Shown here piece after piece: positions 7,164 to 45,656 of a stretch of DNA of 45,656 nucleotides; positions within the stretch are counted from its first letter, which is position 1; each line of letters opens with the position of its first letter. The DNA is from Acidobacteriota bacterium. Lineage in GTDB: Bacteria > Acidobacteriota > Thermoanaerobaculia > Multivoradales > JAGPDF01. The notes beneath the pieces are model-generated. The model had not been told where the DNA came from. It saw only the letters and a list, made by a program, of their open reading frames with translations, and searched no databases. The stretch spans positions 1 to 45,656 of the forward strand of contig WYBK01000176.1 in assembly GCA_011525905.1 (NCBI GenBank), read 5' to 3'. The translations under genes were made by a program, and so were the position numbers.

Positions 7164-7164
7164 C

Positions 7165-7830: not shown

Positions 7831-7884
7831 GCCCTCGGGCGCCGCCGGATTCGCCGGAGCCCGAACCGCCTCGAGACGACCGCG

Positions 7885-13891: not shown

Positions 13892-14328
13892 GCCGGGCCG
13901 CCACGCGAGCCCTCGGTCGAGGTCGCGAGCGCGTGTTGCCCGCGTTCTGCGCGGTCGCGGGCGGCGGCGACCTGCTGACCGGGCTCCTCTTGCTCGCCCG
14001 TCCGGCCGTGGCGCTCGCGCCGCTCGGCCTGACGGTACCGGCCGAGTCCTGGGTCTTCCTGCGCTGGATCGGCCTCTTCGTCGCCGCGGTCGGGACGATC
14101 TACCTGCAACCCTGGAGGCTCCCCCCGGGCTCCGAGCGGCGGTCGCGGCTGCGCGCAGCCCTCGAGATCACCGCGCTCGTCCGGCTGGCGGTCGCCGCTT
14201 TCGTCGCCGGCGCGGTCCTCGCTGCGGAGCTTGCCGCCCCCTGGCTCGCCGTCGGCGGTTACGACGCGCTGGTGGCGCTCGGGCAGCTCTTCCTATTGCC
14301 TGCGGCGAAGGCTCCCGATGTCCACTGA
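13888..14328 (+). CDS. Small hydrophobic membrane protein (about 4 TM), function unknown
   Basis: 146 aa. ATGA overlap with the upstream gene; an 11-nt overlap with the downstream gene. Confidence 0.55.
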   Translation: MSRAATRALGRGRERVLPAFCAVAGGGDLLTGLLLLARPAVALAPLGLTVPAESWVFLRWIGLFVAAVGTIYLQPWRLPPGSERRSRLRAALEITALVRLAVAAFVAGAVLAAELAAPWLAVGGYDALVALGQLFLLPAAKAPDVH

Positions 14329-17154: not shown

Positions 17155-19241
17155 GCAGCCGGCTGGCGGCCTTCTGGGAGCGCCGGCTGGGCGGGCTGGT
17201 CGAGCTCGCGCTGCGCAGGCCGCGAACCGTCCTCGCGATCGCCGGGGTGGTGGCGGCTCTCTCCGGGGCGCTCGTCGTCACCCGCCTCGAGCTGCGCAGC
17301 TCCAACCTCGACCTGATCGATCCGCGGCTGCCCGAGATCGCCCGCTTCCGCGACTTCGCGGCCCGCTTCGGCACGCCCAACGTCCTGATCGTCGCGCTGG
17401 AAGGGGAGGAGCGCGTCCGCCTCGCGCGGCTCGCCGACCGCCTGGCCTCGGCGCTCCCGCGAGTGACCGGCGTGCGCTCGGTGCTCGCCCGCTTGCCCTT
17501 TCGCGACGAGACGCTCGCGGCGTTCGGCGTGGCCCCGCATTTCTTCTCCGACGACGGCCGGAGGCTCTATCTCTTCGTGCAACCGGCGGACGCCGACTCC
17601 GCGGCGGCCACCATCGCGCCCTTCGTCGCCGGCGTGCGAGCGGCCGTCGCGGCGCTCGCGCCGGAGCGCGAAGGCATTCGGGTCGGCTTCACCGGGCTAC
17701 CGCAGTACGCGCTCGACGACCGCGACTTCGTGCGGCGCGACCTCTCGCGCCTTTCGGCGCTGTCGTTCGCCCTGGTGGCGGCGCTCTTCGTCGCCGGCTT
17801 TCGCGGCGTGCGGCAGCCGCTCCTCGCGATGGCCACGCTGGCGCTGGCGGCGCTCGCGACCGCCGGTGTCGCGGCGCTCGCGCCCGGCCATCTGACCCTG
17901 GTCTCGGCCTTCTTCTTCTCGATCCTCTTCGGGCTGGGGATCGATTTCGCGGTCCACCTGCTGGACGCGGTGGCGGAGCGGCGCGCGCTCGGCGAGCGGC
18001 TCGAGCCAGCGATCGCCGGTTCGGCGCGCTTCTTGGCCCCCGGCCTGGGCACGGGGGCGGCGACCACGGCGCTCTCCTTCTTCGTTCTCCTGGTCTCCGG
18101 CTTCCGAGGATTCGCCGAGCTCGGCTGGCTCGCCGGAGTCGGCGTCCTGCTCGCGCTGCTCGCCACGCTGACCGTTCTGCCCGCGGCCCTCTGTCTGCTG
18201 CCGCCGTCCTCGGCTCGACCACGCGCGGCGCACGAGCGCCGGACCGGTCGCTGGCTGCTGGCCGCCCAGCGGCCGGGCATCGCCCTGGCGCTGTTCGGGA
18301 TCGCGGCCGGCTCGCTCCTGGTCGGACCGCCGCCGTTCGACGGCAACTACCTGAACCTGGAGCCGGCGGGCTCCGAGGCGGTTCGCCTGGAGCGCGAGAT
18401 GGTGCGCGGCTCGACCTTTGCGCCGCAGTTCGCGGCGTTCGTGGTGGCCGATGCGGCGGCGGCGCGACGGCTCGCCGCCGAGCTGCGTCGCGAGGAAACG
18501 GTCGCTTCGGTGCGCACGCTCACCGACCTGGCGCCCCTGGTCGGCCTCGGCGCGGCGCTGCCGGAGGCCTTCGAGGGCTTCCGCTCGCTGTTCGTCGATC
18601 CGGAGGGGCGGCACGCCGTCTACGCCTATCCGGCCGGCGACGTCTGGGAGCCGGGATTCCAGCAGAGGTTTCTCGACGCCATGCGGCGTCTCGACCCCGA
18701 GGTCACCGGCATGCCCTTCGTCGGGCGATTCCTGGTCGACCGCTCGCACCGGGCACTGCGCCGCACCGTCTGGCTCGCCGCGGCGCTGCTCGTCGCCGTG
18801 GTGCTCGCCGACTTCGCGCGACCGACGGCGGCGCTGCTGGCGACGTTGCCGACCTTTCTCGGCCTGATGGTCCAGCTGGGGGCGATGCGGCTGCTCGGCG
18901 TGCCGCTCAACCCGCTCGACATCCTGGCTTTTCCGGTAGTCCTGGGCATCGCCGAGGACAGCGGCGTCCACCTCGTGCACCGCTACCTGGCGGAACGGGG
19001 CGACCTGGCGCGCACGCTCGCGGGCGCCGGCCGTACGGTGCTGCTCTGCGGCGTGACGACCCTCGCCGGCTTCGGCGGGCTCGCCGCCGCGACGCACCGC
19101 GGCCTCGCCTCGTTCGCGCTCGCGCTCGCGCTCGGAGTCGCCGCGGCGCTCGTCTTCTCGCTGCTGCTGCTGCCGCAGCTCCTGCGGTTCGCGCTGCCGC
19201 GCGCCGGGTTCGCCGAGGGGCGCGCGGAGGAGCCCGCGTGA
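17151..19241 (+). CDS. MMPL/RND-superfamily transporter (HpnN-like architecture, two 6-TM bundles)
   Basis: 696 aa. GTGA overlap. Two repeats, each a periplasmic loop followed by TM bundles, with GLGIDFAVHLL and GIAEDSGVHLVHRY motifs. Confidence 0.8.
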   Translation: MSSRLAAFWERRLGGLVELALRRPRTVLAIAGVVAALSGALVVTRLELRSSNLDLIDPRLPEIARFRDFAARFGTPNVLIVALEGEERVRLARLADRLASALPRVTGVRSVLARLPFRDETLAAFGVAPHFFSDDGRRLYLFVQPADADSAAATIAPFVAGVRAAVAALAPEREGIRVGFTGLPQYALDDRDFVRRDLSRLSALSFALVAALFVAGFRGVRQPLLAMATLALAALATAGVAALAPGHLTLVSAFFFSILFGLGIDFAVHLLDAVAERRALGERLEPAIAGSARFLAPGLGTGAATTALSFFVLLVSGFRGFAELGWLAGVGVLLALLATLTVLPAALCLLPPSSARPRAAHERRTGRWLLAAQRPGIALALFGIAAGSLLVGPPPFDGNYLNLEPAGSEAVRLEREMVRGSTFAPQFAAFVVADAAAARRLAAELRREETVASVRTLTDLAPLVGLGAALPEAFEGFRSLFVDPEGRHAVYAYPAGDVWEPGFQQRFLDAMRRLDPEVTGMPFVGRFLVDRSHRALRRTVWLAAALLVAVVLADFARPTAALLATLPTFLGLMVQLGAMRLLGVPLNPLDILAFPVVLGIAEDSGVHLVHRYLAERGDLARTLAGAGRTVLLCGVTTLAGFGGLAAATHRGLASFALALALGVAAALVFSLLLLPQLLRFALPRAGFAEGRAEEPA

Positions 19242-20140
19242 GGTCGGCGATTCTGTGCGGGGCGGTCGGCCGTGCCCTCGCCGGTGGGCTGCTGGCGGCG
19301 GCCTGCGCCGGCGCGGCGAGCGCGACGGCGTTCGAGGAGCAGCGCGCGGCGACCTGCTGGGCGGCACGCCACCGGGGCTTCGAAGCGACCGGCCGAGTCG
19401 ACCCGGCGCCGGTCCGGTGCGCGATCGAGGGATTCGGCGCCGCTGCGGCGGCCGCACCGGAGCGACTCGAGCCGAGGTTTCGCGAGATCGAGGCGCTCTG
19501 GTTCGCGGCGCACTTCGTCCGCATGCCCGGCGGCGAGGCGCGGACGCTGCTCGACCGCTGCGTCGAGGTCGCGGAGGGAGCGGTCGCCGAGGTCGCGAGG
19601 CGGGCAGGAGGTGCCGCCCTCGACCCGGGCGCCGACTTCGAGCTCCGGGCCGCAGCGCTGGCGCCGATTCCCGGGGCGGGCGCCGCACACTTCTGGGCCG
19701 CGATCGCCTGGGGCGAGTGGGCGCTCCAGCACGGCGCCCTCGCCGCTCTCGCGCGGGGAGTCCCCACCAGGTTGCGTCGGCACGCCGAGCTCGCGGCGCG
19801 GCTCGCGCCCGGCCTGCGCGACGGCGGCGGCCTCCGGCTCCTCGGGCGCCTGCATGCCTCGCTGCCGCGGATTCCGGGTCTGACCGGTTGGGTCGACCGC
19901 GCGCGCGGCGTCGAGCTCCTGCGCGAGGCGGCCGCCCGCTGGCCCGGCGATCCGAGGAACCGGCTCTTCCTCGCCGAGGCCCTGCTCGAGCGAGACCCGT
20001 CGTCCAGCGGCGAAGCGCTCGCCCTGCTCGAAGACCTGGCGAACGATCGCGCCGATCCGGAGGAGCGGGTCGAGCAGGCCGAGACGCTCCACGCGGCGGC
20101 CGACCTGCTGCGGCGTCTCTCCGTCGAGAGAGCCCGATGA
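19238..20140 (+). CDS. Helical-repeat (TPR/TatT-like) putative lipoprotein, function unknown
   Basis: 300 aa. GTGA overlap. N-terminal LLAAAC lipobox-like signal. Alpha-helical repeat composition. Confidence 0.5.
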   Translation: MRSAILCGAVGRALAGGLLAAACAGAASATAFEEQRAATCWAARHRGFEATGRVDPAPVRCAIEGFGAAAAAAPERLEPRFREIEALWFAAHFVRMPGGEARTLLDRCVEVAEGAVAEVARRAGGAALDPGADFELRAAALAPIPGAGAAHFWAAIAWGEWALQHGALAALARGVPTRLRRHAELAARLAPGLRDGGGLRLLGRLHASLPRIPGLTGWVDRARGVELLREAAARWPGDPRNRLFLAEALLERDPSSSGEALALLEDLANDRADPEERVEQAETLHAAADLLRRLSVERAR

Positions 20141-29726: not shown

Positions 29727-30750
29727 GCGGCTCGACGACTCTGTCCAAGAAGGACTTCCAGACCGACCAGGAGGTCCGCTGGTGCCCGGGGTGCGGCGAC
29801 TACGCGATCCTCTCGGCGGTGCAGGCGGTCTTTCCCGAGCTCGGCGTGCCGCGCGAGCGATTCGTCGTGGTCTCGGGAATCGGTTGCTCGTCGCGCTTCC
29901 CCTACTACATGAACACCTTCGGCTTCCACACGATCCACGGCCGCGCGCCGGCGGTGGCGACCGGGCTGAAGGTGGCGCGCCCCGACCTCGAGGTCTGGAT
30001 CGCGACCGGCGACGGGGACGCGCTGTCGATCGGCGGCAACCATCTGATCCACGCCCTGCGGCGCAACGTCGGCGTCAAGATCCTGATGTTCAACAACCGG
30101 ATCTACGGGCTGACCAAGGGGCAGTACTCGCCGACCTCGGAAGCGGGCAAGCGGACCAAGTCGAGCCCGTTCGGCTCGGTCGATCACCCCTTCAACGCCC
30201 TCTCCGTGGCGATCGGAGCCGGCGCCACCTTCGTCGCGCGCTCGATCGACGTCCTCCAGGCGCACCTGAAAGAGACCCTGCGCGCCGCCGCGGCCCACCG
30301 CGGCACGGCCTTCGTCGAGATCTACCAGAACTGCAACATCTTCAACGACAAGGCGTTCGCCCACCTGACCGAGAAGGAGGTGCGCGACGACGCCCTGGTC
30401 CACCTGGAGACCGGCAAGCCGATGGTCTTCGGCAAGGGGCGCGACCGGGGCATCCGCCTCAAGGGCACCGAGCTCGAGGTGATCCGATTCGCCGACGGTT
30501 TCGGCCCGGACGACTGCCTGGTCTGGGACGACAGGCGCAGCAACCCGGCGATCGCCTTCATGGTCGCGCAGATGGGGCGCCCCGACTTCCCGACCCCGAT
30601 CGGCGTGCTGCGGCGGGTCGACAAGTCGACCTTCGAGACGGGCATGGTCGGCCAGATCGAGCGCGAGACCGAGAAGCGCGGCGTCGGCAACCTGCAGCAG
30701 CTGATCCACTCCGGCGACCTCTGGACCGTCCACGAGGACGGCACGATCTC

Positions 30751-30754
<4 letters not shown>
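29723..30754 (+). CDS. korB: 2-oxoglutarate/2-oxoacid:ferredoxin oxidoreductase, beta (TPP) subunit
   Basis: 343 aa. ATGA overlap. WCPGCGDY, GIGCSSR, GDGDALSIGGNH. Confidence 0.9.
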
Positions 30755-32774
<2,020 letters not shown>

Positions 32775-32778
<4 letters not shown>

Positions 32779-33386
32779 CCGGCTTCGGGCGGGCCCGCGG
32801 CGCCGGCGAGAAGCTCGCGCGACGCCGCCAGCTCCTCGAAGCCGCCGCGAGCTGCCTCGACGCTCGAGGGTACGCCGCGACGACGATGGCACAGGTCGCC
32901 GAAACCGCCGGCCTCGCCAAGGGGACCACCTATCTCTACTTCGGCAGCAAGGAGGCGCTCTTCCTCGAGCTGCTGAGCGAGGCACTCGAGGAGTGGTGCG
33001 TGGCGGCCCTGCGGGCGCTCGAGAGCTCGCTGGCGGAGGAGGTCGACGGGGTTGCGGCGGCGCTCGCGCGCGCCCTCGCCGAACGGCCGCGCTTCGCCCG
33101 CCTGCTCGCGCTGCGCCTGCCGGTGCTCGAGCCCGGGGCGGGCGAGGGCGCGCGGGCCGAGTTCGGCCGGCGTTGGCGCGAGGCGCTCGCGCCGCTCGCC
33201 GACCGGCTCGAGCCGTTCGCAAGCCCGGGCGGCGGGCGCCGGACGGCCGAACGGCTGCTGGCGTTGTCCGCCGGGACGCCGTTCGAGGACGCCGGCGACG
33301 AGCGCGCGGTCTCGGCTTCGATCGTCCGATCGGACGAGCTGGCGCGGGGCTTCGCCGCGCTCCTGCGCGGCGGCCGGCGCGCCTGA
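32775..33386 (+). CDS. TetR-family transcriptional regulator
   Basis: 203 aa. GTGA overlap with the glgX stop. HTH TTMAQVAETAGLAKGTTYLYFGSKEALF. Confidence 0.85.
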
Positions 33387-33471
33387 GCGCGGGCCGCCCG
33401 GCCGGCTCGTCGAGTACTTCCCCCTGATAACCTAGCCGCTTCTTTCCGGACGCCGCCCGAGGGGGACCGCG

Positions 33472-35406
<1,935 letters not shown>

Positions 35407-35429
35407 GAGCCGCGGATGGAGGCGAGGCC

Positions 35430-37178
35430 CTGAGCTCTGCCGACGAGCCGGAGGTCCCGGGGGCCGACCAGGAGACGGTCGCGCTCGGCGCGGACGGCGC
35501 GGCGCCGACCCTGATCCTCGACGGCACGGCGGCCGGAGAGCGGCTCGCCGCCGCGGCCACCGTCGCGCCGCCGGCGCAGGGGCCGGCCGCGAGCGCTCCG
35601 TCGGCGTCCTCCCGGCCGTTCGCGGGGCGCTACCGGCTCGAGTCGGAGCTCGGCGCGGGCGGCATGGGCCGGGTCGCCCTCGCGGAGGATCTCTTCCTCG
35701 GGCGCCGGGTCGCCCTCAAGACGCTCTGGCGCGACCGCGCCTACGACGAGGAGGAGCTCGCGCGCTTCCGGCGCGAGGTGGCTCTGGCGCACGCGGTCAG
35801 TCATCCGAACGTCGCCCGCACTTACGATCTGGGGGAAGTGGAGGGGGTGAGCTACCTCACGATGGAATACCTCGAGGGGGAGACCCTCGAGGCCCGACTG
35901 CTGCGCCGCCTGCGGCTGAGCGGGGAAGAGCTGCGCGAGCTCGCGATTCCGCTCTGCCTGGGCCTGCGCGCCGCGCACCGCGCCGGCGTCGTGCACCGCG
36001 ACCTCAAGCCGTCGAACGTGATGCTGGTCGAGGGGGCGCGGCGGGTCGTCCTGATGGACTTCGGCATCGCCGGCTGGGCGCGCGGACGAGAGCCGGCGAC
36101 CGGCGAGGCTCCCGGCCCGGACGGGGTGCAGGCCCGCTCCGACGTCACCTCCGCCGGCTTCGGCACCCCGCTCTTCATGGCGCCCGAGCAGTGGGAAGGG
36201 GGAGAGGCCGATCCGCGCACCGATCTCTACGCGCTCGGCGTGATCCTCTTCCTGGCGCTCACCGGGCGCACGCCCTACGGTGCCGCCGAGATCGGCGAGC
36301 TCGGGCGCCTGCACCGCGAGGCGCCGGTACCCGACCCCCGAGAGCTGGCGCCCGAGATCGGTGCGGGCCTCGCCCGGCTGGTGCGCCGCTGTCTGGCGAA
36401 GCGCCCGGAGGAGCGGCCGCGCTCGGTCGACGAGGTGCTCGAGCAGCTCGAGATGCCCGCCCGCCGCCGCCGATTCGCCTGGCAGATGGCCGCGCTCGGC
36501 GCGGCGGTGACCCTGCTGCTCGCCGGTCTGGGGGTGCTGCTGACCCGCAGCGCCGAGCGGGCGATCCTCGCCGAGCTGCGCCCGGGCCTGCGGACGCTCG
36601 CCGAGCTGGTGGCCGCCGAGCTCGACCCGGAAGACCTCGACCGGGTGCGCGGCGTCGCGGACGTCGAGTCCGAAGCCTTCCGCCGGATCGCCGATCGGCT
36701 GGTCGCACGCTCGCAGCAGCTACCCGACGAGGCCGACGTCTACGTCCTGCGCCCCGGGGCGCAGCCGGGCCACTATTTCGTCGTCTGCGATCCCGCCCCG
36801 AGCAGCGCGAGGCCCGCCGGCGAGCGGGCGTTCGAGTCGCTGCCCGGCGCGGCGTACGACGGCAGCGCCTTCCCGACGATGACCGAGGCGCTGGCCAGCG
36901 GTCGCGCGGCGGCCGAGCCGAGCTTCTCGCTCGATGCCGGCCGGTACGTGCTCTCCGGCTTCGCCGTGAAACAGACGTCGGCGCCCGATGGCCCCTACCT
37001 GATCGGCGTCGACGCGACCCACGGCCGCCTGGCCGCGATCGCGCGCACGATCCGGGGGTCCGTGGCGGCGGTCTGGCTCGCCGTGCTCGCGGCGCTGGCG
37101 CTCGCCCTGCGCCCCCGCCGCCAGCTGCGAGCGAGCTGGCGGCGGGCGGCCGAGCCGTTCAGGCGGCGAGGACCTTGA
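35430..37178 (+). CDS. Membrane Ser/Thr protein kinase with C-terminal extracytoplasmic domain; start codon uncertain
   Basis: Hanks motifs GAGGMGRV, VALK, HRDLKPSN, DFG, APE. TM segment AALGAAVTLLLAGLGVLL. No in-frame ATG/GTG/TTG lies between the acs stop and the G-loop. CTG 35430 overlaps the TGA of a 5-codon uORF. Confidence 0.75.
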   Translation: MSSADEPEVPGADQETVALGADGAAPTLILDGTAAGERLAAAATVAPPAQGPAASAPSASSRPFAGRYRLESELGAGGMGRVALAEDLFLGRRVALKTLWRDRAYDEEELARFRREVALAHAVSHPNVARTYDLGEVEGVSYLTMEYLEGETLEARLLRRLRLSGEELRELAIPLCLGLRAAHRAGVVHRDLKPSNVMLVEGARRVVLMDFGIAGWARGREPATGEAPGPDGVQARSDVTSAGFGTPLFMAPEQWEGGEADPRTDLYALGVILFLALTGRTPYGAAEIGELGRLHREAPVPDPRELAPEIGAGLARLVRRCLAKRPEERPRSVDEVLEQLEMPARRRRFAWQMAALGAAVTLLLAGLGVLLTRSAERAILAELRPGLRTLAELVAAELDPEDLDRVRGVADVESEAFRRIADRLVARSQQLPDEADVYVLRPGAQPGHYFVVCDPAPSSARPAGERAFESLPGAAYDGSAFPTMTEALASGRAAAEPSFSLDAGRYVLSGFAVKQTSAPDGPYLIGVDATHGRLAAIARTIRGSVAAVWLAVLAALALALRPRRQLRASWRRAAEPFRRRGP

Positions 37179-38379
37179 CGGTGCGGCCGACGCCGTCGAG
37201 CATGTGGCGCAGGTGGTCGTAGTCGGGGTGCTTCATCCGGATCCAGGCATTGGCCATGTAGCCGGCGGAGACGTCGGCGGTGGGCGTTCCGGGCGGCGGC
37301 AGGTGGGAGTCGATGATCCACTCGCCGTACTCCCGCTCGATCCGGTCGATCCCCTCGTAGCCCGAGATGCGGCCGTCGCGGTCGGGCCGCAGGTTGATCA
37401 TGCCCGCGGCGTAGCGGCGGGACGGGGTCTGCCCCGGATGGCCGTGGACGATGGCCATCGCCCACTCGCGGTAGATGTCGAAGTCGTTGGCCGCGGCGTA
37501 GAGATCCCAGACGCCGACTCCCGGCGGCCGGCAGCCGATCTCGGAGAACTTCAGCCCCTTGGGCCCGAAGAACCACTCCATGTGGGTCGCCGAGGTGCCG
37601 ATCTCGAGTGCCTCGATCACCCGCTGCCCGAGCCGCTTGACCTCGGAGTAGCCGGGCGCGTCCACCCGGTTCGTGGTGACGATCTGGGGAGAGATCCAGC
37701 GTGTGCGCATCGCCTCGAGCACGCCGGGGTAGTAGTGCGAGATGAAGTCGTGGACGACGCGGCCGCCGATGGTCAGCGTGTCGTAGAAGCCCTCGTGCCC
37801 CTCGATGAACTCCTCGGCCGCCACGGAGTGTCCACGGTCGAGCCCCTGGGCGACGATCGCGCTCTCGAGCTCGCGCTCGTTGTCGACCCGCTGGGTGCCC
37901 GAGGCGCCGGCGGCGCTGCGCGGCTTGAGCACCAGCGGGAAGCCGACCTCGGCGGCGAACATGCGCAGCTCCTGCGGCGAGGAGACGCCGCGCGACTGCG
38001 CCGTCGGCACGCCGGCCTGGCGCAGCGCGTCCTTCATCGCCGGCTTGTCCCGGCAGAGGAAGGCCGTGCGAACCGAGGTGCCGGGGATGGTCGCCGCCTC
38101 GCGCACCTTGGCCACCGGCAGGATGTGCGCCTCCACCGTGGCCTCCAAACGGTCGACCCACTCCCGGTGCTGCACGCGGCGGACGGCCTCCATCAGCGCC
38201 CCTTCGTCGACCACCGTGCGGACCCGCTCGTAGCCGTGGAGCCAGCTCTTGAGCTCGGGGTCGAGCGCTTCGGCCGGAGCCTCGCCGATTCCGGTCACGC
38301 GGGCGCCGACCGCGTGCAGGCCGCGCACGAACTGGCGCTGGTTGTAGGGGAACTTGGGCTCGACGAACAGGACGTGCAT
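37159..38379 (-). CDS. ATP-grasp domain ligase (carboxylate-amine ligase type)
   Basis: 406 aa. ATG 38379 is preceded by GGGAGGG. FPLVLKPRSAAGASG, EEFIEGHE, EIGCRPPG. Confidence 0.8.
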   Translation of the reverse strand: MHVLFVEPKFPYNQRQFVRGLHAVGARVTGIGEAPAEALDPELKSWLHGYERVRTVVDEGALMEAVRRVQHREWVDRLEATVEAHILPVAKVREAATIPGTSVRTAFLCRDKPAMKDALRQAGVPTAQSRGVSSPQELRMFAAEVGFPLVLKPRSAAGASGTQRVDNERELESAIVAQGLDRGHSVAAEEFIEGHEGFYDTLTIGGRVVHDFISHYYPGVLEAMRTRWISPQIVTTNRVDAPGYSEVKRLGQRVIEALEIGTSATHMEWFFGPKGLKFSEIGCRPPGVGVWDLYAAANDFDIYREWAMAIVHGHPGQTPSRRYAAGMINLRPDRDGRISGYEGIDRIEREYGEWIIDSHLPPPGTPTADVSAGYMANAWIRMKHPDYDHLRHMLDGVGRTVKVLAA

Positions 38380-38503
38380 GGTCCCTCCCGAATCGCTGCA
38401 CCAGGAAGTGTAGCCCGCCTCTCTCGCCGGGCGCGACCCGACCGGCTGGCGGGCCCGCGGCCCGCCTGGTCTCGCGGCGCGGCAGCGCGTAGGATGGTTC
38501 GTC

Positions 38504-39433
38504 ATGCCCTTCGTCGCGCTGCTCGGACCCCAGCGCTTCACGCCCACGCTGGGCGAGGCGGTGCGCTCGCTCGGCATCGAGGGGCGCCTCGCCTCGGTGA
38601 CCGCCGGGTGGCAGGAGCGCGAGGCAGAAGACCTCGAGCTGCACGAGCACCTCGGCGAGCGGACGGTCAATCTCCAGCTCTACGCTCGCGGCGAGGATGT
38701 CGCCGAGCGCGACCCGGAGCTGGCCGCCGCCCATCGCGAGCGCCAGGCCGAGCTGCGCGAGCTCCAAGGTCTCTACCGGCTGCGCCTGGCGGCGGCGATG
38801 GAGGCGTGCGCGGCGCTCGAGCGTTCGAGCGCGCCCGAGCGGCTGCGCGAGCGCGAGATCGAGGCCGCCCTCGAGGAGATCCGCAGGCTCGATGCCCACC
38901 ACTTCGAACGGGTGACCGAGATCGACGAGGCCTTCGAGCGGTCGATTCGGCCGGGCGAGCGGCCCCAGGTGGCGCGGCACCGCAGAGCGGTCGCGCGGCT
39001 GCTGGACCGCACCGAAGCGGTCGCGATCGCCGGCGGGCACGTCGCGATCCTGCTCAACCGCTTGCGCACGTTCGGGCTCGACGGCGAGCTCGGTCGGCGG
39101 CCGGTGCTGGCCTGGTCGGCGGGGGCGATGGCGGTTTCCGAGCGGATCGTGCTCTTCCACGATGCTCCGCCGCAGGGCTCGGGCGCGCCCGAAGTGCTCG
39201 GGGCCGGCCTCGGGCTGGTGCGCGGGCTCGTGCCGTTGCCGCATGCACGGCGGCGGCTCGAGCTCGGGGACGCCGGGCGGGTCGCCCGCTTCGCCCGCCG
39301 CTTCGCGCCGGCGCTGGCGGTGGCGATGGACGACGGCTGCCGGCTCGAGATCCGGCCGGACGGGTGGCGAGCCTCGCCGGGGCTCTGGAGCCTGACCTCG
39401 ACGGGGGCGGTGCTGCCGCTCGACGCGGCATGA
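38504..39433 (+). CDS. Peptidase S51 (PepE/cyanophycinase)-like protein with a long helical insertion
   Basis: 309 aa. AIAGGHVAILL (GGN-like), LAWSAGAMA (Ser205 codon 39116-39118), LVPLPHARRR. Residues ~55-165 are charged and helical. Confidence 0.6.
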   Translation: MPFVALLGPQRFTPTLGEAVRSLGIEGRLASVTAGWQEREAEDLELHEHLGERTVNLQLYARGEDVAERDPELAAAHRERQAELRELQGLYRLRLAAAMEACAALERSSAPERLREREIEAALEEIRRLDAHHFERVTEIDEAFERSIRPGERPQVARHRRAVARLLDRTEAVAIAGGHVAILLNRLRTFGLDGELGRRPVLAWSAGAMAVSERIVLFHDAPPQGSGAPEVLGAGLGLVRGLVPLPHARRRLELGDAGRVARFARRFAPALAVAMDDGCRLEIRPDGWRASPGLWSLTSTGAVLPLDAA

Positions 39434-40566
39434 GCCGCGCGTTGCGCGAGCTGATCGAGGCCGGGCCGGTCACGCCGGCGGCGCTCGACGCCTTTCTCGC
39501 CGGTCGCCAGGTGCCGATGGTCGAAGGGGGGACCGTGACTTTCCTCTACCGCGGCGAGGCGGACGCGGTCTACCTGCAGCACTGGATCTACGGCCTGCCG
39601 GCGGCGGTTCCCTTCACCCGGCTCGACGGCACCGACCTCTGGTATCTGGCCCAGGAGATCCCGGTGCGGTCGCGAGTCGAATACAAGCTCGAGGTCCAAG
39701 AGGGGGACCGATCCCGGCTGATCCGCGACCCGCTCAACCCGCTGCTCGCCCACGATCCGTTCGGCGCCAACTCGGTGTGTCAGGGGGCCGACTACCGCCC
39801 GCCCCGCTGGGCCGAGCCCGACCCGGAGTCGCGTCCGGGCCGGGTCGAGACGTTGCGCATCGATTCGGCGGCGCTCGGCCGCAGCGAGGAGGTCGGCCTC
39901 TACCTGCCGGCGCGCTTCCGGCCGACGCGCCGCTATCCGCTGCTGGTGGTGCACGACGGCTTCGACTACTTGCGCTACGCGGCGCTGCAGACCGTCCTCG
40001 ACAACCTGATCCACCGCAACGAGGTCGCCGGGATGATCGTGGCGCTCACCCAGTCGCGCGATCGCCTGCGCGAGTACGCCGCCGACGAGCGCCACGCCCG
40101 CTTCCTCGTCGAGGAGCTGGTGCCGCGGCTCGAGCGCGACTATCCGCTCGCCGCGGGACCGGCCCAACGCGGCCTGATGGGCGCGAGCTTCGGCGCGGTC
40201 GCCTCGCTCGCCACGGCCTGGCGCCATCCGGGGTGTTTCGGCCGGCTGCTGCTGCAGTCGGGGTCGTTCGCCTTCACCGACATCGGCCCCTCGCGGCGGG
40301 GGCCCGCCTTCGAGCCGGTCGTCGAGTTCGTCAACGCCTTCCGCGCGCGGCCGGCGGCGGTCGCCGAGCGGGTCTTCGTCAGCTGCGGAGTCTACGAGTC
40401 GCTGATCTACGAGAACCGCTCGATCGTTCCGCTACTGCAGCGGACCGGCATGCAAGTGCGCTACGTCGAGGCCCACGACGGCCACAACTGGGAGAACTGG
40501 CGCGACCGCCTGCGCGAGGGGCTCTCCTACCTCTTTCCCGGCCCGCTCTGGATGATTTACGAGTAG
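39430..40566 (+). CDS. Esterase, PF00756-type (enterochelin-esterase-like, with an N-terminal beta-sandwich domain)
   Basis: 378 aa. ATGA overlap. YPLLVVHDG, GASFG nucleophile elbow, HDGHNWENW. Confidence 0.75.
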   Translation: MSRALRELIEAGPVTPAALDAFLAGRQVPMVEGGTVTFLYRGEADAVYLQHWIYGLPAAVPFTRLDGTDLWYLAQEIPVRSRVEYKLEVQEGDRSRLIRDPLNPLLAHDPFGANSVCQGADYRPPRWAEPDPESRPGRVETLRIDSAALGRSEEVGLYLPARFRPTRRYPLLVVHDGFDYLRYAALQTVLDNLIHRNEVAGMIVALTQSRDRLREYAADERHARFLVEELVPRLERDYPLAAGPAQRGLMGASFGAVASLATAWRHPGCFGRLLLQSGSFAFTDIGPSRRGPAFEPVVEFVNAFRARPAAVAERVFVSCGVYESLIYENRSIVPLLQRTGMQVRYVEAHDGHNWENWRDRLREGLSYLFPGPLWMIYE

Positions 40567-40607
40567 GTTTGAGCTAGATTGCCCGCGATCGCGTGGAGGC
40601 TGCGACC

Positions 40608-41876
40608 ATGGCGGATGTGACGCGCAGGATCGGCTTGTCGCTCGGGGCGGACGTCTGCTGGCCCATCTGCTACGAGGAGATCGTCGAGCGGCTGAAGCTG
40701 GCGATCCCGATGGGGGGCGACACCCTGCGCTTCGAGGTCGAGCGGCTGACCATCGAGCCGTTCGACCTGCGCCAGCCGGTGAGATACGACGTCGTGCTCG
40801 ACCGTTTGACTCACTGGTACCACACGAGTCGCGAGTGGATCAAGAAGGCGGTCGTGATGAACGACCTCTACGTGCTCAACAACCCCTGGTCGATCCAGTC
40901 GAACGAGAAGCACACCAGCTACTGCGCCATGATGCGGCTGGGGCTGCCGATTCCCGAGACCTGGCTGCTGCCGCCCAAGGAGTACGAGCCGGCGGCCGAC
41001 CTGCAGGTGACGCTCGAGCGCTACGCGAAGTTCTTCGACCTCGGCAAGATCGGTGAGCGCGTCGGCTATCCGCACTTCATCAAGCCCTACGACGGCGGCG
41101 CCTGGGTGGGCGTCTCGAAGATCGGCAACCGCGCGGAGCTGGTCGAGGCGTACGACGCCTCGGGCAAGCGGATCATGCATCTGCAGTCGGCGGTCGAGCC
41201 CTTCGACCTCTTCGCGCGGGCGCTCGGCGTCGGCCCGCAGGTGCACGTCATGAAGTACGACCCCGCGGCGCCGCTGCACGACCGTTACAAGGTCGCCTTC
41301 GACTTCGTCACCGCGGAGGAGTGGCAGACGCTGGCCAACCTCTGCCTGACGATCAACGCCTTCTTCGGCTGGGATTTCAACAGCTGCGAAACGCTGCGCA
41401 GGGACGGCGTCTTCCACCCGATCGACTTCGCCAACGCCTGCCCGGACTCGCAGGTCACCTCACTGCACTATCACTTCCCCTGGCTGGTCAAGGCCAAGGT
41501 CAAATGGTCGATCTTCGTGGCGGCGACGCGCCGCAAGATGCGCTGGAATCTCGACTGGGCGCCCTTCTTCGAGATCGCCGACGGCGACGAGCCCTTCCCG
41601 GAGAAGCTCAAGCGGTACGCGCGGCTGGCGCACCAGCGCTTCGAGAGCGACCGCTTCGTCGAGTTCTGCGCCGAACACCTGCGCCACGTCGACGAGGTCA
41701 CCTGGGAGTTCTTCGGCACGCCGACCGCCAAGGAAGCGGTGCGCAAGAAGGTCGAGGCGCTCTTCCCGGCGCACGAGGTCGAACAGTTCACCGAGCATTT
41801 CTGGGGGCTGATCCAGTTCTGGCGCAAGACCGAGGGGGAGTATCTCGGCTTGGGCCCGGAGCGCGCCGGCGCGTGA
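40608..41876 (+). CDS. ATP-grasp-fold protein (RimK/glutathione-synthetase-like), second ligase of the cluster
   Basis: ATG 40608 is preceded by GGAGG (40595-40599); the track start GTG 40593 is the alternative. FIKPYDGGAWVGV, RIMHLQ, PIDFANACPD. Confidence 0.65.
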   Translation: MADVTRRIGLSLGADVCWPICYEEIVERLKLAIPMGGDTLRFEVERLTIEPFDLRQPVRYDVVLDRLTHWYHTSREWIKKAVVMNDLYVLNNPWSIQSNEKHTSYCAMMRLGLPIPETWLLPPKEYEPAADLQVTLERYAKFFDLGKIGERVGYPHFIKPYDGGAWVGVSKIGNRAELVEAYDASGKRIMHLQSAVEPFDLFARALGVGPQVHVMKYDPAAPLHDRYKVAFDFVTAEEWQTLANLCLTINAFFGWDFNSCETLRRDGVFHPIDFANACPDSQVTSLHYHFPWLVKAKVKWSIFVAATRRKMRWNLDWAPFFEIADGDEPFPEKLKRYARLAHQRFESDRFVEFCAEHLRHVDEVTWEFFGTPTAKEAVRKKVEALFPAHEVEQFTEHFWGLIQFWRKTEGEYLGLGPERAGA

Positions 41877-42646
41877 CGCCGAGCCGGCGCGAGTTCTGGC
41901 GCTCCGAGCCGCTCGGCGCCGAGGTCGGAGTGGCCGTCTGGGGAGAGGGGGGCGCGCCGCTGCTGCTCTTTCCGACCGCCGGAGGCGACGCCCGCGAGGT
42001 CGAGCGCTTCGGCCTGGTCGCCGGCCTCGAACCTTGGATCGCGGCCGGGCGGCTGCGGGTGATCTCGTGCGACAGCGTCCCCGGGCGCGCGCTGCTCGCC
42101 GACCCGGAGCTAACGCCGCAGCGCTTCGCCGAGCTGCTCTACCGGTTCGACGTCTTCGTCTACCACGAGCTGGTGCCGTGGGTGCGGTGGCTGGCGGACG
42201 ACCCGCGGCAGGAGCTGCTGGCCGCGGGCGCCTCGCTCGGCGCGCTCTTCGCGTTGGTGGCGATCTGCCGCCATCCGGACGCCTTCCGCGAGGCGCTCTG
42301 CCTGTCGGGCAAGTACGACCTGGAGGACTGGTTTGCAGGCGAGACGCCGCCGCTCGCTTTCCACTACGTCTCGCCGCTCCACTTCCTGCCCTATCTCGAC
42401 GACGCCGACCACCTGGCGCTGCTGCGACGCCGCTTCGTGCGGCTGGTTTGCGGCCGCGGGCGCGCCGAGCGCCCCGAGTACGCCTTCCGTGTCGCGCGGG
42501 TGCTCGGCGACCGCGGCGTCCCCAACCGGGTCGACGTCCGCGGTCCCGAATGGCACCACGACTGGCAGAGCTGGCGCGAGGCGCTGCCCGGCTACCTCGG
42601 TCCGCTGGCCAGCGAGCCCGCGCGACCGCTCGGCGCCGAGCTCTGA
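41873..42646 (+). CDS. Esterase / alpha-beta hydrolase, PF00756-like, short form
   Basis: 257 aa. GTGA overlap. GASLG nucleophile elbow, EWHHDWQSW. Confidence 0.65.
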   Translation: MTPSRREFWRSEPLGAEVGVAVWGEGGAPLLLFPTAGGDAREVERFGLVAGLEPWIAAGRLRVISCDSVPGRALLADPELTPQRFAELLYRFDVFVYHELVPWVRWLADDPRQELLAAGASLGALFALVAICRHPDAFREALCLSGKYDLEDWFAGETPPLAFHYVSPLHFLPYLDDADHLALLRRRFVRLVCGRGRAERPEYAFRVARVLGDRGVPNRVDVRGPEWHHDWQSWREALPGYLGPLASEPARPLGAEL

Positions 42647-42662
42647 TTCCGCGGGGTAGGCG

Positions 42663-43097
42663 ATGAGCGACGCGGCGCCCACGAGCTTCCCGGTCGCTCT
42701 CGAGCTGCCGGTGCAGTGGGGCGAGATGGACTCCTACCGGCACGTCAACAACGCCGTCTACTTCCGCTGGTTCGAGAGCGCGCGTATGGAGTACTTCCTC
42801 CGCATCGGCTGGGACGAAGTCGAGCGGCGCACCGGCGTCGGGCCGATCCTGCACTCGACCGCCGCCCGCTTCCGCGCGCCGCTCGAGTTCCCGGACCAGG
42901 TGCGCATCAGCGCCGGCGTCGGCGAAATGGGCGAGGATCGCTTCACCATGCACTACCGGGTCGAGAGCGCGAGGCTCGGCCGGCTCGCCGCCGAGGGGAG
43001 CGGGGTGGTCGTCGCCTTCGACTACCGCGCCGGCACGAAGGCGGCGCTGCCGGCTCCGGTGCGCGCGGCGATCGCCGCGCTCGAGGGGCGAGGGTGA
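42663..43097 (+). CDS. Acyl-CoA thioesterase, hotdog fold (4HBT/YbgC-like)
   Basis: 144 aa. WGEMDSYRHVNNAVYFRWFE. Confidence 0.8.
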   Translation: MSDAAPTSFPVALELPVQWGEMDSYRHVNNAVYFRWFESARMEYFLRIGWDEVERRTGVGPILHSTAARFRAPLEFPDQVRISAGVGEMGEDRFTMHYRVESARLGRLAAEGSGVVVAFDYRAGTKAALPAPVRAAIAALEGRG

Positions 43098-44059
43098 GCT
43101 CGACCGCCGGCGGGCTCTCGCTCCTGGCCGACGTCGGCGGCACCAACGCCCGCTTCGCGCTCTGCGGCGGCCCGGCCGGGCCGCAGCGGCTGCGCGTGCT
43201 GCCGGCGACGGAGTTCGGCGACTTCGCCTCGGCGGCGCGCGCCTACCTCGAGCTGGAGCAACTGGCGCCGGGGGCGATCGCCGCCGCCGCGATCGCGCTC
43301 GCGGCGCCGGTCGTCGGCGACGAGGTCAGGCTGACCAATGTCGGCTGGCGTTTCTCGATCGAGGCGACGCGCCGAGCGCTCGGCCTCGGCCGCCTGGTCG
43401 TGCTCAACGACTTCGAGGCGCTGGCGCTGTCGCTGCCGGCTCTCGTCGACGCCGACCTCGAGCCGCTCGCCGCCGGTCGGCCGGGTGCCGAGGGCACGCT
43501 CGCGCTGCTCGGCCCGGGCACCGGCCTGGGAGTCGCCGGGCTCCTGCCGCTCCCCGGCGGCGGCTGGCATCCGATCGCCGGAGAGGGGGGGCACCGCGAC
43601 CTCGCCGCCGCGGACGAGCGGCAGTGGCGAGTGATCGAAGGGCTCGGTCGCCGATTCGGCCACGTCTCGGCCGAACGGGCGCTGTCGGGACCCGGGCTGG
43701 TGGCGATCGAGCGGGCGCTGCGCGAGCTGGACGGAGCGCCCGCGGCCGGAGCGACCGCCGAAGAGCTCTCGGCGCGCGCGCGCGCTGGAGACGATTCGTA
43801 CGCGCTCGAGGCCTGCCGGCTCTTCTCGGGGTGGCTCGGCGCCGTGGCCGGAGACCTGGCCCTCACGCTCGGCGCGCGCGGCGGCGTCTATCTCGCCGGA
43901 GGCGCGCTCGCCGGGCTGGGCACGGCGTTCGACCGCGGGCTCTTCCTGGAGCGCTTCCTCGCCAAAGGGCGCTTCCGCGCCTATCTCGAGGGCGTTCCGG
44001 TCCGCCGCATCGCGCGCCCGGACGCTGCGCTGCTCGGCCTGTCGCGCGCTCTGCGCTGA
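43094..44059 (+). CDS. glk: Glucokinase
   Basis: 321 aa. GTGA overlap. LLADVGGTNARFAL, VLNDFEA, GPGTGLG, EGGH. Confidence 0.85.
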   Translation: MSSTAGGLSLLADVGGTNARFALCGGPAGPQRLRVLPATEFGDFASAARAYLELEQLAPGAIAAAAIALAAPVVGDEVRLTNVGWRFSIEATRRALGLGRLVVLNDFEALALSLPALVDADLEPLAAGRPGAEGTLALLGPGTGLGVAGLLPLPGGGWHPIAGEGGHRDLAAADERQWRVIEGLGRRFGHVSAERALSGPGLVAIERALRELDGAPAAGATAEELSARARAGDDSYALEACRLFSGWLGAVAGDLALTLGARGGVYLAGGALAGLGTAFDRGLFLERFLAKGRFRAYLEGVPVRRIARPDAALLGLSRALR

Positions 44060-44088
44060 GCGGCGCCGAGGCCGGCCGCCGGTCGGGC

Positions 44089-45636
44089 TCAGGCGGCCGG
44101 CGGGCCGGTCCCCTCGCCGGCGGGTGGCGCGGGAAGGACGGCGAGCCGTTCGGCGCCCTCGGTGAGCTGGCGCAGCCGCTGCGCGACACCGTCGCCGAAC
44201 GCCTCCCACGGGAGCCGCCACCCCCAGTTGCCCGCCGCCACGCCGGGGGTGTTCATGCGCGCCTCCGCGCCCAGCCCGAGCAGGTCCTGCACCGGTGCGA
44301 CGGCGATCTCGGCGACCGAGGTCCAGACCGCGCGCACCATGCCCCAGGCCGCGTCCTCCGGCGCTCCGCCCAGGTAGGCGAGCGCGCGCCGCCGCTCGTC
44401 CTCGTTGGCTGCCTCGAACCAGCCGCGCGCGGTCTGGTTGTCGTGCGTGCCGGTGTAGAACGCCGACGCCGGCTCCACCCGGTGGGGCAAGTGATCCTCC
44501 GAGCCGGTGTGAAAGCCGAACTGCAGCACTTTCATGCCGGGCAGGCCGACGGCGCGCCGCAGCGCGTGGACCTCGTCGGTGATCTGCCCCAGGTCCTCGG
44601 CGAGCAGCGGCAGCTCGCCGAGCGCGGCGGCGAGCGCGTCGAAGAGCGCGCGGCCGGGGCCCTCGACCCAGCGGCCGTCGCGGGCCGTCGAGGCACCGGC
44701 GTCGACCTGCCAGAAGGCCTGGAAGCCGCGGAAGTGGTCGAGGCGCAGCAGGTCGACCTGGCGCAGGTTGGCGCGCACCCGCTCGACCCACCAGGCGAAG
44801 CCCTCCTCGCACATCCGGTCCCAGCGGTAGAGCGGGTTGCCCCAGAGCTGGCCGTCGGCGGCGAAGTAGTCGGGGGGGACGCCGGCGACGTGGCGCGGCC
44901 GGCGCTCGTCGTCGAGGTCGAAGAGGTCGGCGCGGGCCCAGACTTCGACGGCGTCGCCCGCGAGATAGATCGGCAGGTCGCCGACCAGTCGGATGCCGCG
45001 CTCCGCGGCCTCGGCGCGCAGCCGCGCGAGCTGCCGGTGGAACGCGAACTGGACGAAGCGATGGAAGGCGATCTCCCGCGCCAGCTCGCGCCGCGCCTCG
45101 GCGAGCGCACCCGGCTCGCGCTTGCGCACGGGCTCGGGCCAGCTCTGCCAAGCCGAGTTGGCGAAGCGCTCGCGCAGCGCCGCGAACAGGGTCCAGTCGT
45201 CGAGCCAGGAGGCGACCTCGGGTCGTGCCGACCAGGCCGCCTCCCGCTCGCGCAGCTCGGCGATGCCGGGCTCGCCGGAGTCCGACGCGCGCTCGAAGGC
45301 GCGCCCGATCAGCTCACGCCGGACCCGGCCGGTCTCCGGGAAGTCGATCCGCTCGGCGAAGGGGAGGCGCGCGCGGTCGAGCTCGGCCGCCTCGAGCAGC
45401 CCCTCCTCGGCCAGTCGCTCCGGGGAGACCAGGCGGGGGTTGCCCGCGAAAGCCGAGAGCGCGCCGTAGGGCGAGTCGCCGTGCGCCGTCGGCCCGAGCG
45501 GCAGCAGCTGCCAGAGCGCCTGGCCCGAAGCCGCGAGCCGCTCGAGCCACCAGCTCGCGGCCGGTCCGAGGTCTCCGCACCCGAAGTCGCCGGGCAGCGA
45601 GGTCGGATGCAGCAGCACCGCGCTCTGTCGTCGCAT
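44089..45636 (-). CDS. malQ: 4-alpha-glucanotransferase (amylomaltase, GH77)
   Basis: 515 aa. LLHPTSLPG, DSPYGALSAFAGNP, RLDHFRGF, YTGTHDNQT. Confidence 0.95.
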   Translation of the reverse strand: MRRQSAVLLHPTSLPGDFGCGDLGPAASWWLERLAASGQALWQLLPLGPTAHGDSPYGALSAFAGNPRLVSPERLAEEGLLEAAELDRARLPFAERIDFPETGRVRRELIGRAFERASDSGEPGIAELREREAAWSARPEVASWLDDWTLFAALRERFANSAWQSWPEPVRKREPGALAEARRELAREIAFHRFVQFAFHRQLARLRAEAAERGIRLVGDLPIYLAGDAVEVWARADLFDLDDERRPRHVAGVPPDYFAADGQLWGNPLYRWDRMCEEGFAWWVERVRANLRQVDLLRLDHFRGFQAFWQVDAGASTARDGRWVEGPGRALFDALAAALGELPLLAEDLGQITDEVHALRRAVGLPGMKVLQFGFHTGSEDHLPHRVEPASAFYTGTHDNQTARGWFEAANEDERRRALAYLGGAPEDAAWGMVRAVWTSVAEIAVAPVQDLLGLGAEARMNTPGVAAGNWGWRLPWEAFGDGVAQRLRQLTEGAERLAVLPAPPAGEGTGPPAA

Positions 45637-45656
45637 GGCGCCGATGCTATGCGCAG

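Follow-up and report, generated by a model that had tools for sequence, protein, structure and literature searches.

What do two ATP-grasp ligases, an S51-like peptidase and two esterases do when they are encoded together in one compact gene cluster? This question is raised by a 45,656-nucleotide stretch of DNA from an Acidobacteriota bacterium (Thermoanaerobaculia; GenBank assembly GCA_011525905.1, contig WYBK01000176.1, positions 1 to 45,656), called the window below, in which five genes that we name AG1, S51-like, E1, AG2 and E2 occupy positions 37159-42646. A description made from the letters of this DNA alone (the sequence-only reading) had placed five such genes there and had seen in them a paired synthesis and turnover system for a small peptide or ester-linked polymer; all five genes are present at these coordinates. 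We propose that the cluster encodes a cytoplasmic ligase-hydrolase system for an amino-acid-derived compound that would be made and consumed in step with glycogen, leaving the type of link open, and we judge this proposal to have a little less than an even chance of being right.

No description of the cluster was found in the full-text literature, where an earlier mention of a purely computational kind may still exist. No NCBIfam model scored above its cut-off against any of the five window proteins, and no close PDB entry was found for the cluster. The cluster as a whole is undescribed, in agreement with the sequence-only reading, which could match it to no described pathway, and its parts belong to known enzyme superfamilies.

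Conservation of the cluster across bacterial lineages

We carried out a locus scan for AG2 using one genome per species and a profile built from six sequences, which returned at least 549 stretches with an AG2 relative; the best 80 were kept. Gene order in these loci was determined by tblastn using the window proteins, and only loci with sufficient flanking sequence entered the denominators; the loci named below carry labels from L001 to L088, and gene names follow the window. The cluster is syntenic in the 80 species-representative loci, which come from about nine lineages: Acidobacteriota, Myxococcota, Gamma- and Alphaproteobacteria, Actinomycetota (Acidimicrobiia), Planctomycetota, Gemmatimonadota, Eisenbacteria and Binatia. 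E1 lies directly upstream of AG2 in 52 of 62 loci, the order S51-E1-AG2 is kept in 42 of 62, and E2 lies directly downstream of AG2 in 49 of 73, counts that exclude chance adjacency of unrelated genes. Thus the neighbourhood of five families, whose conservation the sequence-only reading had proposed to check, holds up as synteny across phyla; it does not hold up as a fixed set of five, the steadiest core being E1-AG2-E2. A cluster that has been split can stay on one contig, as seen where AG1-S51-E1 (L084) lies about 34 kb from AG2-E2 (L006).

The proteins are also well conserved in sequence. Among 14 complete loci, the mean pairwise identity was 66% for AG2, 64% for AG1, 60% for E1, 55% for E2 and 47% for S51, and in the loci that also carry the glycogen synthase gene GlgA, mean identity was 67% for AG2 as compared with 54% for GlgA. 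Across the best 80 loci, which span several phyla, AG2 is 64-84% identical to the window protein. The cluster is under strong purifying selection. Searches yielded at least 7,952 relatives of AG2 at E <= 1e-5 (those named in their source are nearly all called 'hypothetical protein'), together with 7,386 relatives of the S51 variant.

A genomic link to α-glucan genes

Neighbouring genes were grouped into families by unsupervised clustering of 3,335 open reading frames (ORFs) from 81 loci. In this set, the sole further family shared across phyla was a GlgA of about 485 aa, and no other cross-phylum neighbour family emerged; GlgC, GCS2-CBS, HD-GYP/GGDEF, Rrf2 and GalE-like genes were each confined to 4-6 loci. 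The GlgA proteins score 507-550 bits against TIGR02095, the model for ADP-glucose-type glycogen/starch synthase (cut-off 328), and match the starch synthase catalytic domain in Pfam. Of the 38 loci with full flanks, 11, from five lineages, have GlgA no more than 8 kb from AG2. Often it sits within the cluster itself: in L065, L067, L074 and L078 only 3-30 bp separate its end from AG1, which follows on the same strand, and in L041, L055 and L080 it directly follows E2 (for examples, see Table 1).

In the window's own lineage, the neighbours are other genes of α-glucan metabolism: the GlgX-like gene, Glk within the operon, and MalQ (Table 1). A GlgX-like gene in the window, for which the best NCBIfam match is TIGR02100 (glgX_debranch; 429 bits, cut-off 641), shares 55% identity by tblastn with a GH13 gene (6486-8486) that directly abuts AG1 in L085, a locus in which MalQ follows the operon. 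Besides the window, MalQ is found near the cluster in L005, L021, L030 and L085, and in four loci, of which three are from Acidimicrobiia, E2 is followed by a TreS/amylosucrase-like GH13 gene. Taken across phyla, the α-glucan neighbours comprise GlgX, Glk, MalQ, GlgA, GlgC and GH13 genes, and at the genomic level the cluster is tied to α-glucan metabolism.

Two unrelated ATP-grasp families

The window proteins were checked against Pfam, NCBIfam, PDB sequences and PADLOC, and the nucleotide stretch against Rfam; AlphaFold models of AG2 and of the S51-like protein were compared with the PDB using Foldseek. For AG2, the searches of Pfam, NCBIfam and PDB sequences gave sub-threshold local matches to D-Ala-D-Ala ligases (Ddl C-terminal domain), even when a family profile was used. 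The AG2 model (pLDDT 82.5, pTM 0.86) contains a complete ATP-grasp core together with a helical C-terminal domain of about 120 residues, and matches Ddl, ArgX, LysX, VanA and DcsG with a Foldseek probability of 1.0 at 12-18% identity, the best TM-scores being those to ArgX and LysX (TMt 0.62-0.68). In a 17-sequence alignment reaching down to 28% identity, K159 (in a KP motif), Q193, E261, D273 and N276 are invariant, and these residues lie at what we take to be the positions where ATP-grasp enzymes bind ATP and Mg. Judged by its model and its conserved residues, AG2 belongs to the ATP-grasp superfamily, and we treat it as a presumably active enzyme because the invariant residues occupy the expected ATP and Mg positions. 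A 616-aa protein (P0252, L088:5478-7328) was considered as an esterase-AG2 fusion and rejected, since BLASTP revealed the E1 C-terminus followed by frame-shifted sequence, the product of a faulty metagenome gene call.

A rare and distant AG2 subfamily (409 aa, 38% identity) directly follows a 464-aa S51-like gene. In L086:8540-16418 these two genes and those of two large protein kinases form an apparent operon that lacks the esterases. Because the distant subfamily keeps an S51-like partner there in the absence of esterases, the arrangement suggests that the S51-AG2 pairing predates the full cluster.

ArgX and LysX acylate a carrier protein, LysW, and the likeness of AG2 to both raises the alternative of reversible protein tagging, in which AG2 would attach amino acids to a protein carboxylate, the target being perhaps a glycogen enzyme, and S51 and the α/β-hydrolases would remove the tag. 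The unusual conservation of AG2 (66%) is what would be expected for the recognition of a macromolecule, two protein kinases follow the distant AG2 subfamily, and the helical additions of AG2 and S51 could serve as docking surfaces. However, AG2 resembles LysX, ArgX and Ddl in fold alone (12-18% identity), and three enzymes of the L-amino-acid-ligase type and two esterases would be left unexplained. Nor does the cluster contain a conserved small ORF for a carrier or target: no conserved carrier-protein or precursor ORF was found between E1 and AG2, where unrelated insertions occupy the long gaps of L010, L052, L057 and L060, identified by eye as Uma2-like proteins, a Ser/Thr kinase, an uncharacterised protein and a symporter. 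We therefore consider protein tagging very unlikely. The symporter (L060:6540-7844, Eisenbacteria) is by eye of the dicarboxylate/amino-acid:cation type, a weak hint to acidic amino acids.

AG1 is an ATP-grasp protein of a different kind, with a match to PF02222 of 42.4 bits (cut-off 27). Its best matches among PDB sequences are the L-amino-acid ligases 4wd3 (E 3e-14), BacD and BL00235, with many other ATP-grasp structures matched as well, and it scores 39.8 bits against the BacD equivalog model (cut-off 850). By sequence, AG1 resembles enzymes of the L-amino-acid-ligase type. Orthologues are found in 25 related loci at 62-88% identity. AG1-type genes as a whole make up three orthogroups, AG1 with 26 members, the window gene among them, and AG1b and AG1c with 16 each; identities are 54-65% within and 33-35% between groups, and one AG1 paralogue also matches Pfam LAL_C2. 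Full loci can thereby contain four ATP-grasp genes, as in L074 (Gemmatimonadota), L041 and L080 (Acidobacteriota), L078 (Gammaproteobacteria) and L036; the last is from Nannocystis punicea FL3, a culturable carrier of the full cluster.

An S51 peptidase with a helical insertion

The S51-like protein scores 29.4 bits against PF03575 (cut-off 23.9), with the match limited to its C-terminal half. Its model (pLDDT 87) gave 19 top Foldseek matches in the PDB that are all S51 enzymes, among them the acI-B1 peptidase 6nqc, pseudo-CphB, PepE, dipeptidase E and cyanophycinase. In alignment with Deinococcus PepE, the motif AWSAGAM falls on the nucleophile elbow and the motif LPHA on the catalytic His; among 30 homologues, H247 is invariant and S205 nearly so, and D277 is a candidate for the third, acidic residue, with a placement that is not confident. 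Given the domain match and the predicted fold, the protein is assigned to peptidase family S51. It differs from the matched S51 structures of 190-270 residues in having a helical hairpin insertion of about 110 residues (about 59-168), and it carries an invariant Arg pair after the catalytic His (LPHARRRL).

S51 enzymes characterised so far, such as PepE and cyanophycinase, act on Asp-containing peptides. The product could be a free poly- or oligo-amide reserve like cyanophycin, with AG1-type enzymes and AG2 polymerising amino acids, probably including Asp, S51 depolymerising the product, and the glycogen genes only co-regulated. Several observations are consistent with such a reserve: the matches of the S51 model to cyanophycinase, pseudo-CphB and PepE; a local match between AG1 and the ATP-grasp segment of cyanophycin synthetase (NF010623, E 3e-11); the Arg pair, which would suit an acidic substrate; the symporter between E1 and AG2 in L060; and a lack of obvious signal peptides that extends to all of the proteins. 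The cluster nevertheless lacks both a Mur-ligase-type M domain and the CphA architecture, and the match to cyanophycin synthetase stops at 42 bits (cut-off 877). A polyamide would also give no role to the two conserved esterases, which together with AG2 make up the most constant core, and the placement of GlgA 3-30 bp from AG1 in several phyla is tighter than loose co-regulation would suggest. On balance, a cyanophycin-like reserve seems unlikely, although we rank it next after the main proposal.

Two esterases, one with an N-terminal β-sandwich

Both E1 and E2 match the esterase family PF00756, E1 with 74.4 bits (cut-off 22) and E2 with 36.7 bits over a short stretch. The G-A-S-x-G elbow and terminal H-D/N-W..W motif that the sequence-only reading had seen in the two proteins could be located as GASFG and HNWENW in E1 and as GASLG and HHDWQSW in E2. 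Residue conservation was assessed in 63 E1 and 51 E2 sequences, window copies included: S253 and H352 of E1 are conserved in at least 95%, S121 and H229 of E2 were found to be invariant, and its Ser and His reach at least 95% in the 51 sequences. By these sequence criteria, E1 and E2 belong to the PF00756 family and retain its putative Ser nucleophile and His. E2 has no PDB sequence match at E <= 0.1; it aligns with E1 by hhalign (probability 94%, E 1.3e-7) from the nucleophile elbow through the His motif, which identifies it, at the level of sequence profiles, as a distant paralogue of the E1 catalytic domain that lacks the N-domain.

The layout of E1, an Enterochelin_N-like β-sandwich followed by a Ser-His esterase domain, is that of Fes. 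Fes structures (3mga, 2b20; E about 1e-10) are its best PDB matches, with ferulic acid esterases next, and the NCBIfam enterochelin esterase model NF007758 gives 94.6 bits (cut-off 222). Fes and CE1 enzymes cleave carboxylic esters. This layout fits a further alternative, a small specialised metabolite, secreted or intracellular, such as a peptide antibiotic (dipeptide or oligopeptide), an oligoester of the siderophore kind or a thiol peptide of low molecular weight, for which E1 and E2 would provide Fes-like or esterase-D-like processing or self-protection. The nearest solved relatives of AG1, RizA and BacD, make dipeptide antibiotics, five loci have a CBS-domain ligase of the GCS2 family after E2, and the window operon includes a thioesterase. 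Yet no recurrent transporter, non-ribosomal peptide synthetase, polyketide synthase, tailoring or resistance gene occurs in the neighbourhood, the broad distribution and housekeeping-level conservation are unlike those of typical secondary-metabolite clusters, and the link to glycogen would go unexplained. Of all the readings considered here, this one strikes us as highly improbable.

The N-domain of E1 spans residues 1-147. Of 26 orthologues, 25 match Enterochelin_N in this domain, the best with E 6.5e-9, and the window copy scores 23.9 bits with a cut-off of 27.1. Sub-threshold matches to CBM_20 appear in 15 of the 26, reaching E 1.1e-4 at best, and to CBM_48 in 8, where the best has E 4e-6; in the window copy neither was detected at E <= 1. 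As a lead, these matches point to an N-domain that might bind α-glucan, as a starch- or glycogen-binding module.

If the N-domain does so, the cluster might place aminoacyl or peptidyl esters on hydroxyls of glycogen or maltodextrin, with AG2 or an AG1-type enzyme as the writer, E1 (docked) and E2 removing the esters and S51 trimming peptides. No other reading gives every conserved part a role, GlgA, GH13, MalQ and Glk included. It draws on the CBM20/CBM48-like matches of the E1 N-domain and on the ferulic acid esterases as the next-best solved relatives of E1 after Fes; ferulic acid esterases strip acyl groups from polysaccharides, the antigen 85 family of sugar-ester transferases belongs to PF00756, and ester-forming ATP-grasp enzymes exist in VanA (D-Ala-D-Lac) and the graspetide ligases. 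On the other side, the CBM matches are weak and Enterochelin_N fits better, and about two thirds of the loci have no glucan gene nearby. We also know of no report of aminoacylated glycogen and of no ATP-grasp enzyme that acylates a polysaccharide hydroxyl, both of which count against glucan esters. We hold this reading to be quite unlikely. If true, it would mean that the main bacterial carbon reserve bears a covalent modification not described before, making glycogen a decorated polymer that combines carbon and nitrogen reserves.

Organisation of the window locus

The genes of the cluster and their neighbours in the window are listed in Table 1. AG1 is indeed transcribed divergently from the S51 operon, as the sequence-only reading had stated; the four-gene extent which that reading gave to the operon does not stand, because the unit continues through a thioesterase gene and Glk. 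Most likely, the transcription unit is S51-E1-AG2-E2-thioesterase-Glk, ending at 44059, and Glk is probably its last gene, since the GTGA at 43094-43097 holds both the GTG start of Glk and the stop of the thioesterase gene. Two further overlaps of this kind, both noted previously, are present in the sequence: the E1 start overlaps the S51 stop in the ATGA at 39430-39433, and the E2 start overlaps the AG2 stop in the GTGA at 41873-41876. Similar 4-base overlaps occur in the independent gene calls of L001, L084 and L085, and the cluster is probably co-translated as a unit. The remaining gaps measure 124 bp (AG1/S51), 41 bp (E1/AG2) and 16 bp (E2/thioesterase). The AG2 ORF opens at GTG 40593; its homologues are 422 aa long and begin MADVTRR, and we therefore place the AG2 start at ATG 40608. 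The ATG of AG1 has the sequence GGGAGGG five bases upstream.

The thioesterase scores 47 bits against TIGR00051 (cut-off 68.7). A thioesterase gene follows E2 (or AG2, if E2 is missing) in seven Acidobacteriota loci (L001, L004, L005, L007, L008, L009 and L085), and the thioesterase-Glk order of the window recurs in L005 and L008.

The 124-bp spacer is presumably a control region shared by AG1 and the S51 operon. It contains no Rfam match at E <= 1 and no sigma-70-like or terminator-like site. A scan of positions 30000-45656 with Rfam for a clue to a ligand gave two matches (E 0.27 and 0.8) that fall far under their gathering scores, and none is credible. Reading of the sequences by eye revealed no obvious signal peptides in the cluster proteins, and the system therefore looks cytoplasmic. 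The G+C content of the window is 70-78%.

Table 1. Positions of the cluster genes and their neighbours in the window, with examples of GlgA genes at related loci.
Feature	Position	Strand	Description
GlgX-like GH13 glycogen-debranching enzyme	30784..32778 (start approximate)	+	4.4 kb from AG1
TetR-family regulator	about 32799-33386		between GlgX-like gene and kinase
Acetyl-CoA synthetase	33472-35406		between GlgX-like gene and kinase
Ser/Thr protein kinase	about 35409-37178	+	convergent with AG1
AG1	37159..38379	-	406 aa; ATP-grasp ligase resembling L-amino-acid-ligase type; divergent from operon
Divergent intergenic region AG1/S51 operon	38380..38503		124 bp
S51-like serine peptidase	38504..39433	+	309 aa; PF03575
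E1	39430..40566	+	378 aa; predicted Fes/CE1-type serine esterase, N-terminal β-sandwich domain
AG2	40608..41876	+	422 aa; divergent ATP-grasp enzyme (predicted), all-helical C-terminal domain
E2	41873..42646	+	257 aa; predicted serine α/β-hydrolase
4HBT-fold (YbgC/FadM-like) thioesterase	42663..43097	+	PF13279 91 bits; 16 bp past E2
Glucokinase (Glk)	43094..44059	+	PF02685 308 bits; GTG start
MalQ, GH77 4-α-glucanotransferase	44089..45636	-	PF02446 525 bits; convergent with operon
GlgA, locus L061	3183-4634
GlgA, locus L078	10708-12159
GlgA, locus L041	10012-11466

Further neighbours were noted in the window and at individual loci. The 3' ends of the kinase gene and AG1, which converge, overlap by 20 bases (37159-37178), and protein kinases are also found near the cluster in L002, L052 and L084. 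Neither the TetR-family regulator nor the acetyl-CoA synthetase of the window recurs beside the cluster in other loci. Another enzyme of amide formation, a carboxylate-amine ligase of the GCS2 family with fused CBS domains, is encoded after E2 in L073 (10027-11940), L056, L061, L065 and L067, loci that belong to Myxococcota, Binatia, Eisenbacteria and an unclassified deltaproteobacterium. In three Acidobacteriota loci that have AG2 without E1 and S51 (L043:5468-7973, L045 and L053), AG2 is immediately preceded by genes for an HD-type (HD_5) protein and a GGDEF diguanylate cyclase; the HD-type gene occurs alone in L013 and L015, and the GGDEF gene alone in L041. Elsewhere in the window, positions 12000-20000 have a G+C content of 74-78% and an AT skew down to -0.40, with ORFs that by eye encode membrane proteins, a cytochrome-c-motif protein and an MMPL/RND-like exporter; this region appears unrelated to the cluster.

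A proposed ligase-hydrolase system working in step with glycogen

How might these parts act together? ATP-grasp enzymes form an acyl-phosphate that is then attacked by an amine or, more rarely, a hydroxyl. Because of this chemistry and the likeness of AG1 to L-amino-acid ligases, the product we propose is an amino-acid-derived oligomer or conjugate. AG1, joined in fuller clusters by the two paralogous orthogroups, and AG2 would activate carboxylates as acyl-phosphates using ATP, and AG1-type ligases and AG2 would join amino acids into a short peptide or amino-acid conjugate. S51, E1 and E2 would dismantle the ligase product, with S51 acting on amide bonds and E1 and E2 on ester or other acyl bonds. 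We infer that ligases and hydrolases act on one shared substrate, in synthesis and turnover. The compound itself may be a second reserve or stress compound, or a decoration on glucan or maltodextrins, in which case the N-terminal β-sandwich of E1 could do the docking.

Several points weigh against this proposal. The genomic link is partial, in that any glucan gene lies within 8 kb in 13 of the 38 full-flank loci, about a third (GH13 genes uncounted), and the glycogen genes could lie nearby because they are co-regulated with the cluster, and not because the two share a substrate. The window itself has a single AG1-type ligase in 45 kb, so that AG1 and AG2 are its only ATP-grasp pair. In the Actinomycetota loci E1-AG2-E2 is kept and S51 is not adjacent; the peptidase is therefore not obligatory, and it follows that the most constant core of the cluster is AG2 flanked by E1 and E2. 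PF00756 enzymes can be transferases or thioesterases, and turnover is therefore not the sole possible role of E1 and E2. Finally, Enterochelin_N fits the E1 N-domain better and more often than CBM20 or CBM48, and because the CBM matches are sub-threshold, glucan binding by E1 is a lead and not a proof.

A paired synthesis and turnover system, as the sequence-only reading had it, is still the most economical interpretation of the cluster, one that we infer from the enzyme families; its assignments to S51 and ATP-grasp were borne out by PF02222 (AG1), PF03575 (S51) and the Foldseek fold matches (AG2 and S51). It did not cover the link to glucans or the three AG1-type orthogroups, and it had also missed the extension of the operon, the α-glucan neighbours, the two-domain, Fes-like layout of E1 and the CBM-like matches of its N-domain.

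Whatever the compound, we argue that the cluster has an important and unrecognised function because it is better conserved than GlgA, is translationally coupled, carries up to four ATP-grasp ligases per locus and is repeatedly placed among glycogen genes. AG2, the S51 variant and E2 are without a curated family, a solved structure or a name past the superfamily level, despite the existence of at least 7,952 AG2 relatives, and carriers of AG2 are soil, sediment and marine bacteria, represented by at least 549 species-representative genomes. The function probably concerns the storage or buffering of carbon and nitrogen in these abundant, little-cultured bacteria. Should the product be a new reserve compound or a modification of glycogen, it would add a new element to bacterial storage metabolism, and would provide new ligases and esterases for biocatalysis.

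Comparison with known systems

None of the five proteins matched a PADLOC model at E <= 0.001, and the cluster is not a known anti-phage defence system. Nor is it a graspetide system, a class of ribosomally synthesised and post-translationally modified peptides (RiPPs), because it has no precursor ORF: the window gaps are too short (124, 41 and 16 bp), and the longer gaps elsewhere hold unrelated genes.

The cyanophycin system (CphA1/CphA2 with CphB/CphE) is similar to the cluster in pairing ATP-grasp ligase activity with an S51 serine peptidase in the cytoplasm. Unlike it, the cluster lacks the CphA N domain and the Mur-ligase-type M domain, its ligases are separate proteins of about 400 aa from two unrelated ATP-grasp families, its S51 protein has the helical insertion of about 110 residues, and its conserved set includes two esterases and glycogen genes. 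The cyanophycin synthetase models reach 37-42 bits against the cluster, with cut-offs of 850-877, and match the ATP-grasp segment only; the clustering of ORFs from the loci gave no recurrent Mur-ligase gene in the cluster neighbourhoods. The cluster is not a cyanophycin synthetase/cyanophycinase system, as the sequence-only reading had concluded from its layout.

L-amino-acid ligases (BacD/YwfE, RizA, BL00235 and TabS) are the closest solved relatives of AG1 and its two paralogues, which like them are ATP-grasp proteins of about 400 aa. Identity to the AG1 type is low (phmmer E 3e-14 at best), and AG1-type genes differ in occurring as up to three orthogroups per locus, beside GlgA, S51 and esterases and not in antibiotic clusters. 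Among the Fes/CE1 esterases of PF00756, Fes shares its layout with E1 and is the best PDB and NCBIfam match. E1 nonetheless stays under the equivalog cut-off (94.6 as against 222 bits), has no gene for siderophore synthesis or uptake nearby, and is accompanied by E2, which has neither the N-domain nor a PDB sequence match.

With the LysX/ArgX/RimK and Ddl ligases, AG2 has in common a three-domain ATP-grasp core (TMt up to 0.68), an invariant Lys in the KP motif and invariant acidic and Asn residues at the expected Mg sites. It differs from them in its low identity (12-18%), with all family models below their cut-offs, and in having no LysW-like partner; what sets it apart is the extra helical C-terminal domain of about 120 residues and its fixed esterase partners.

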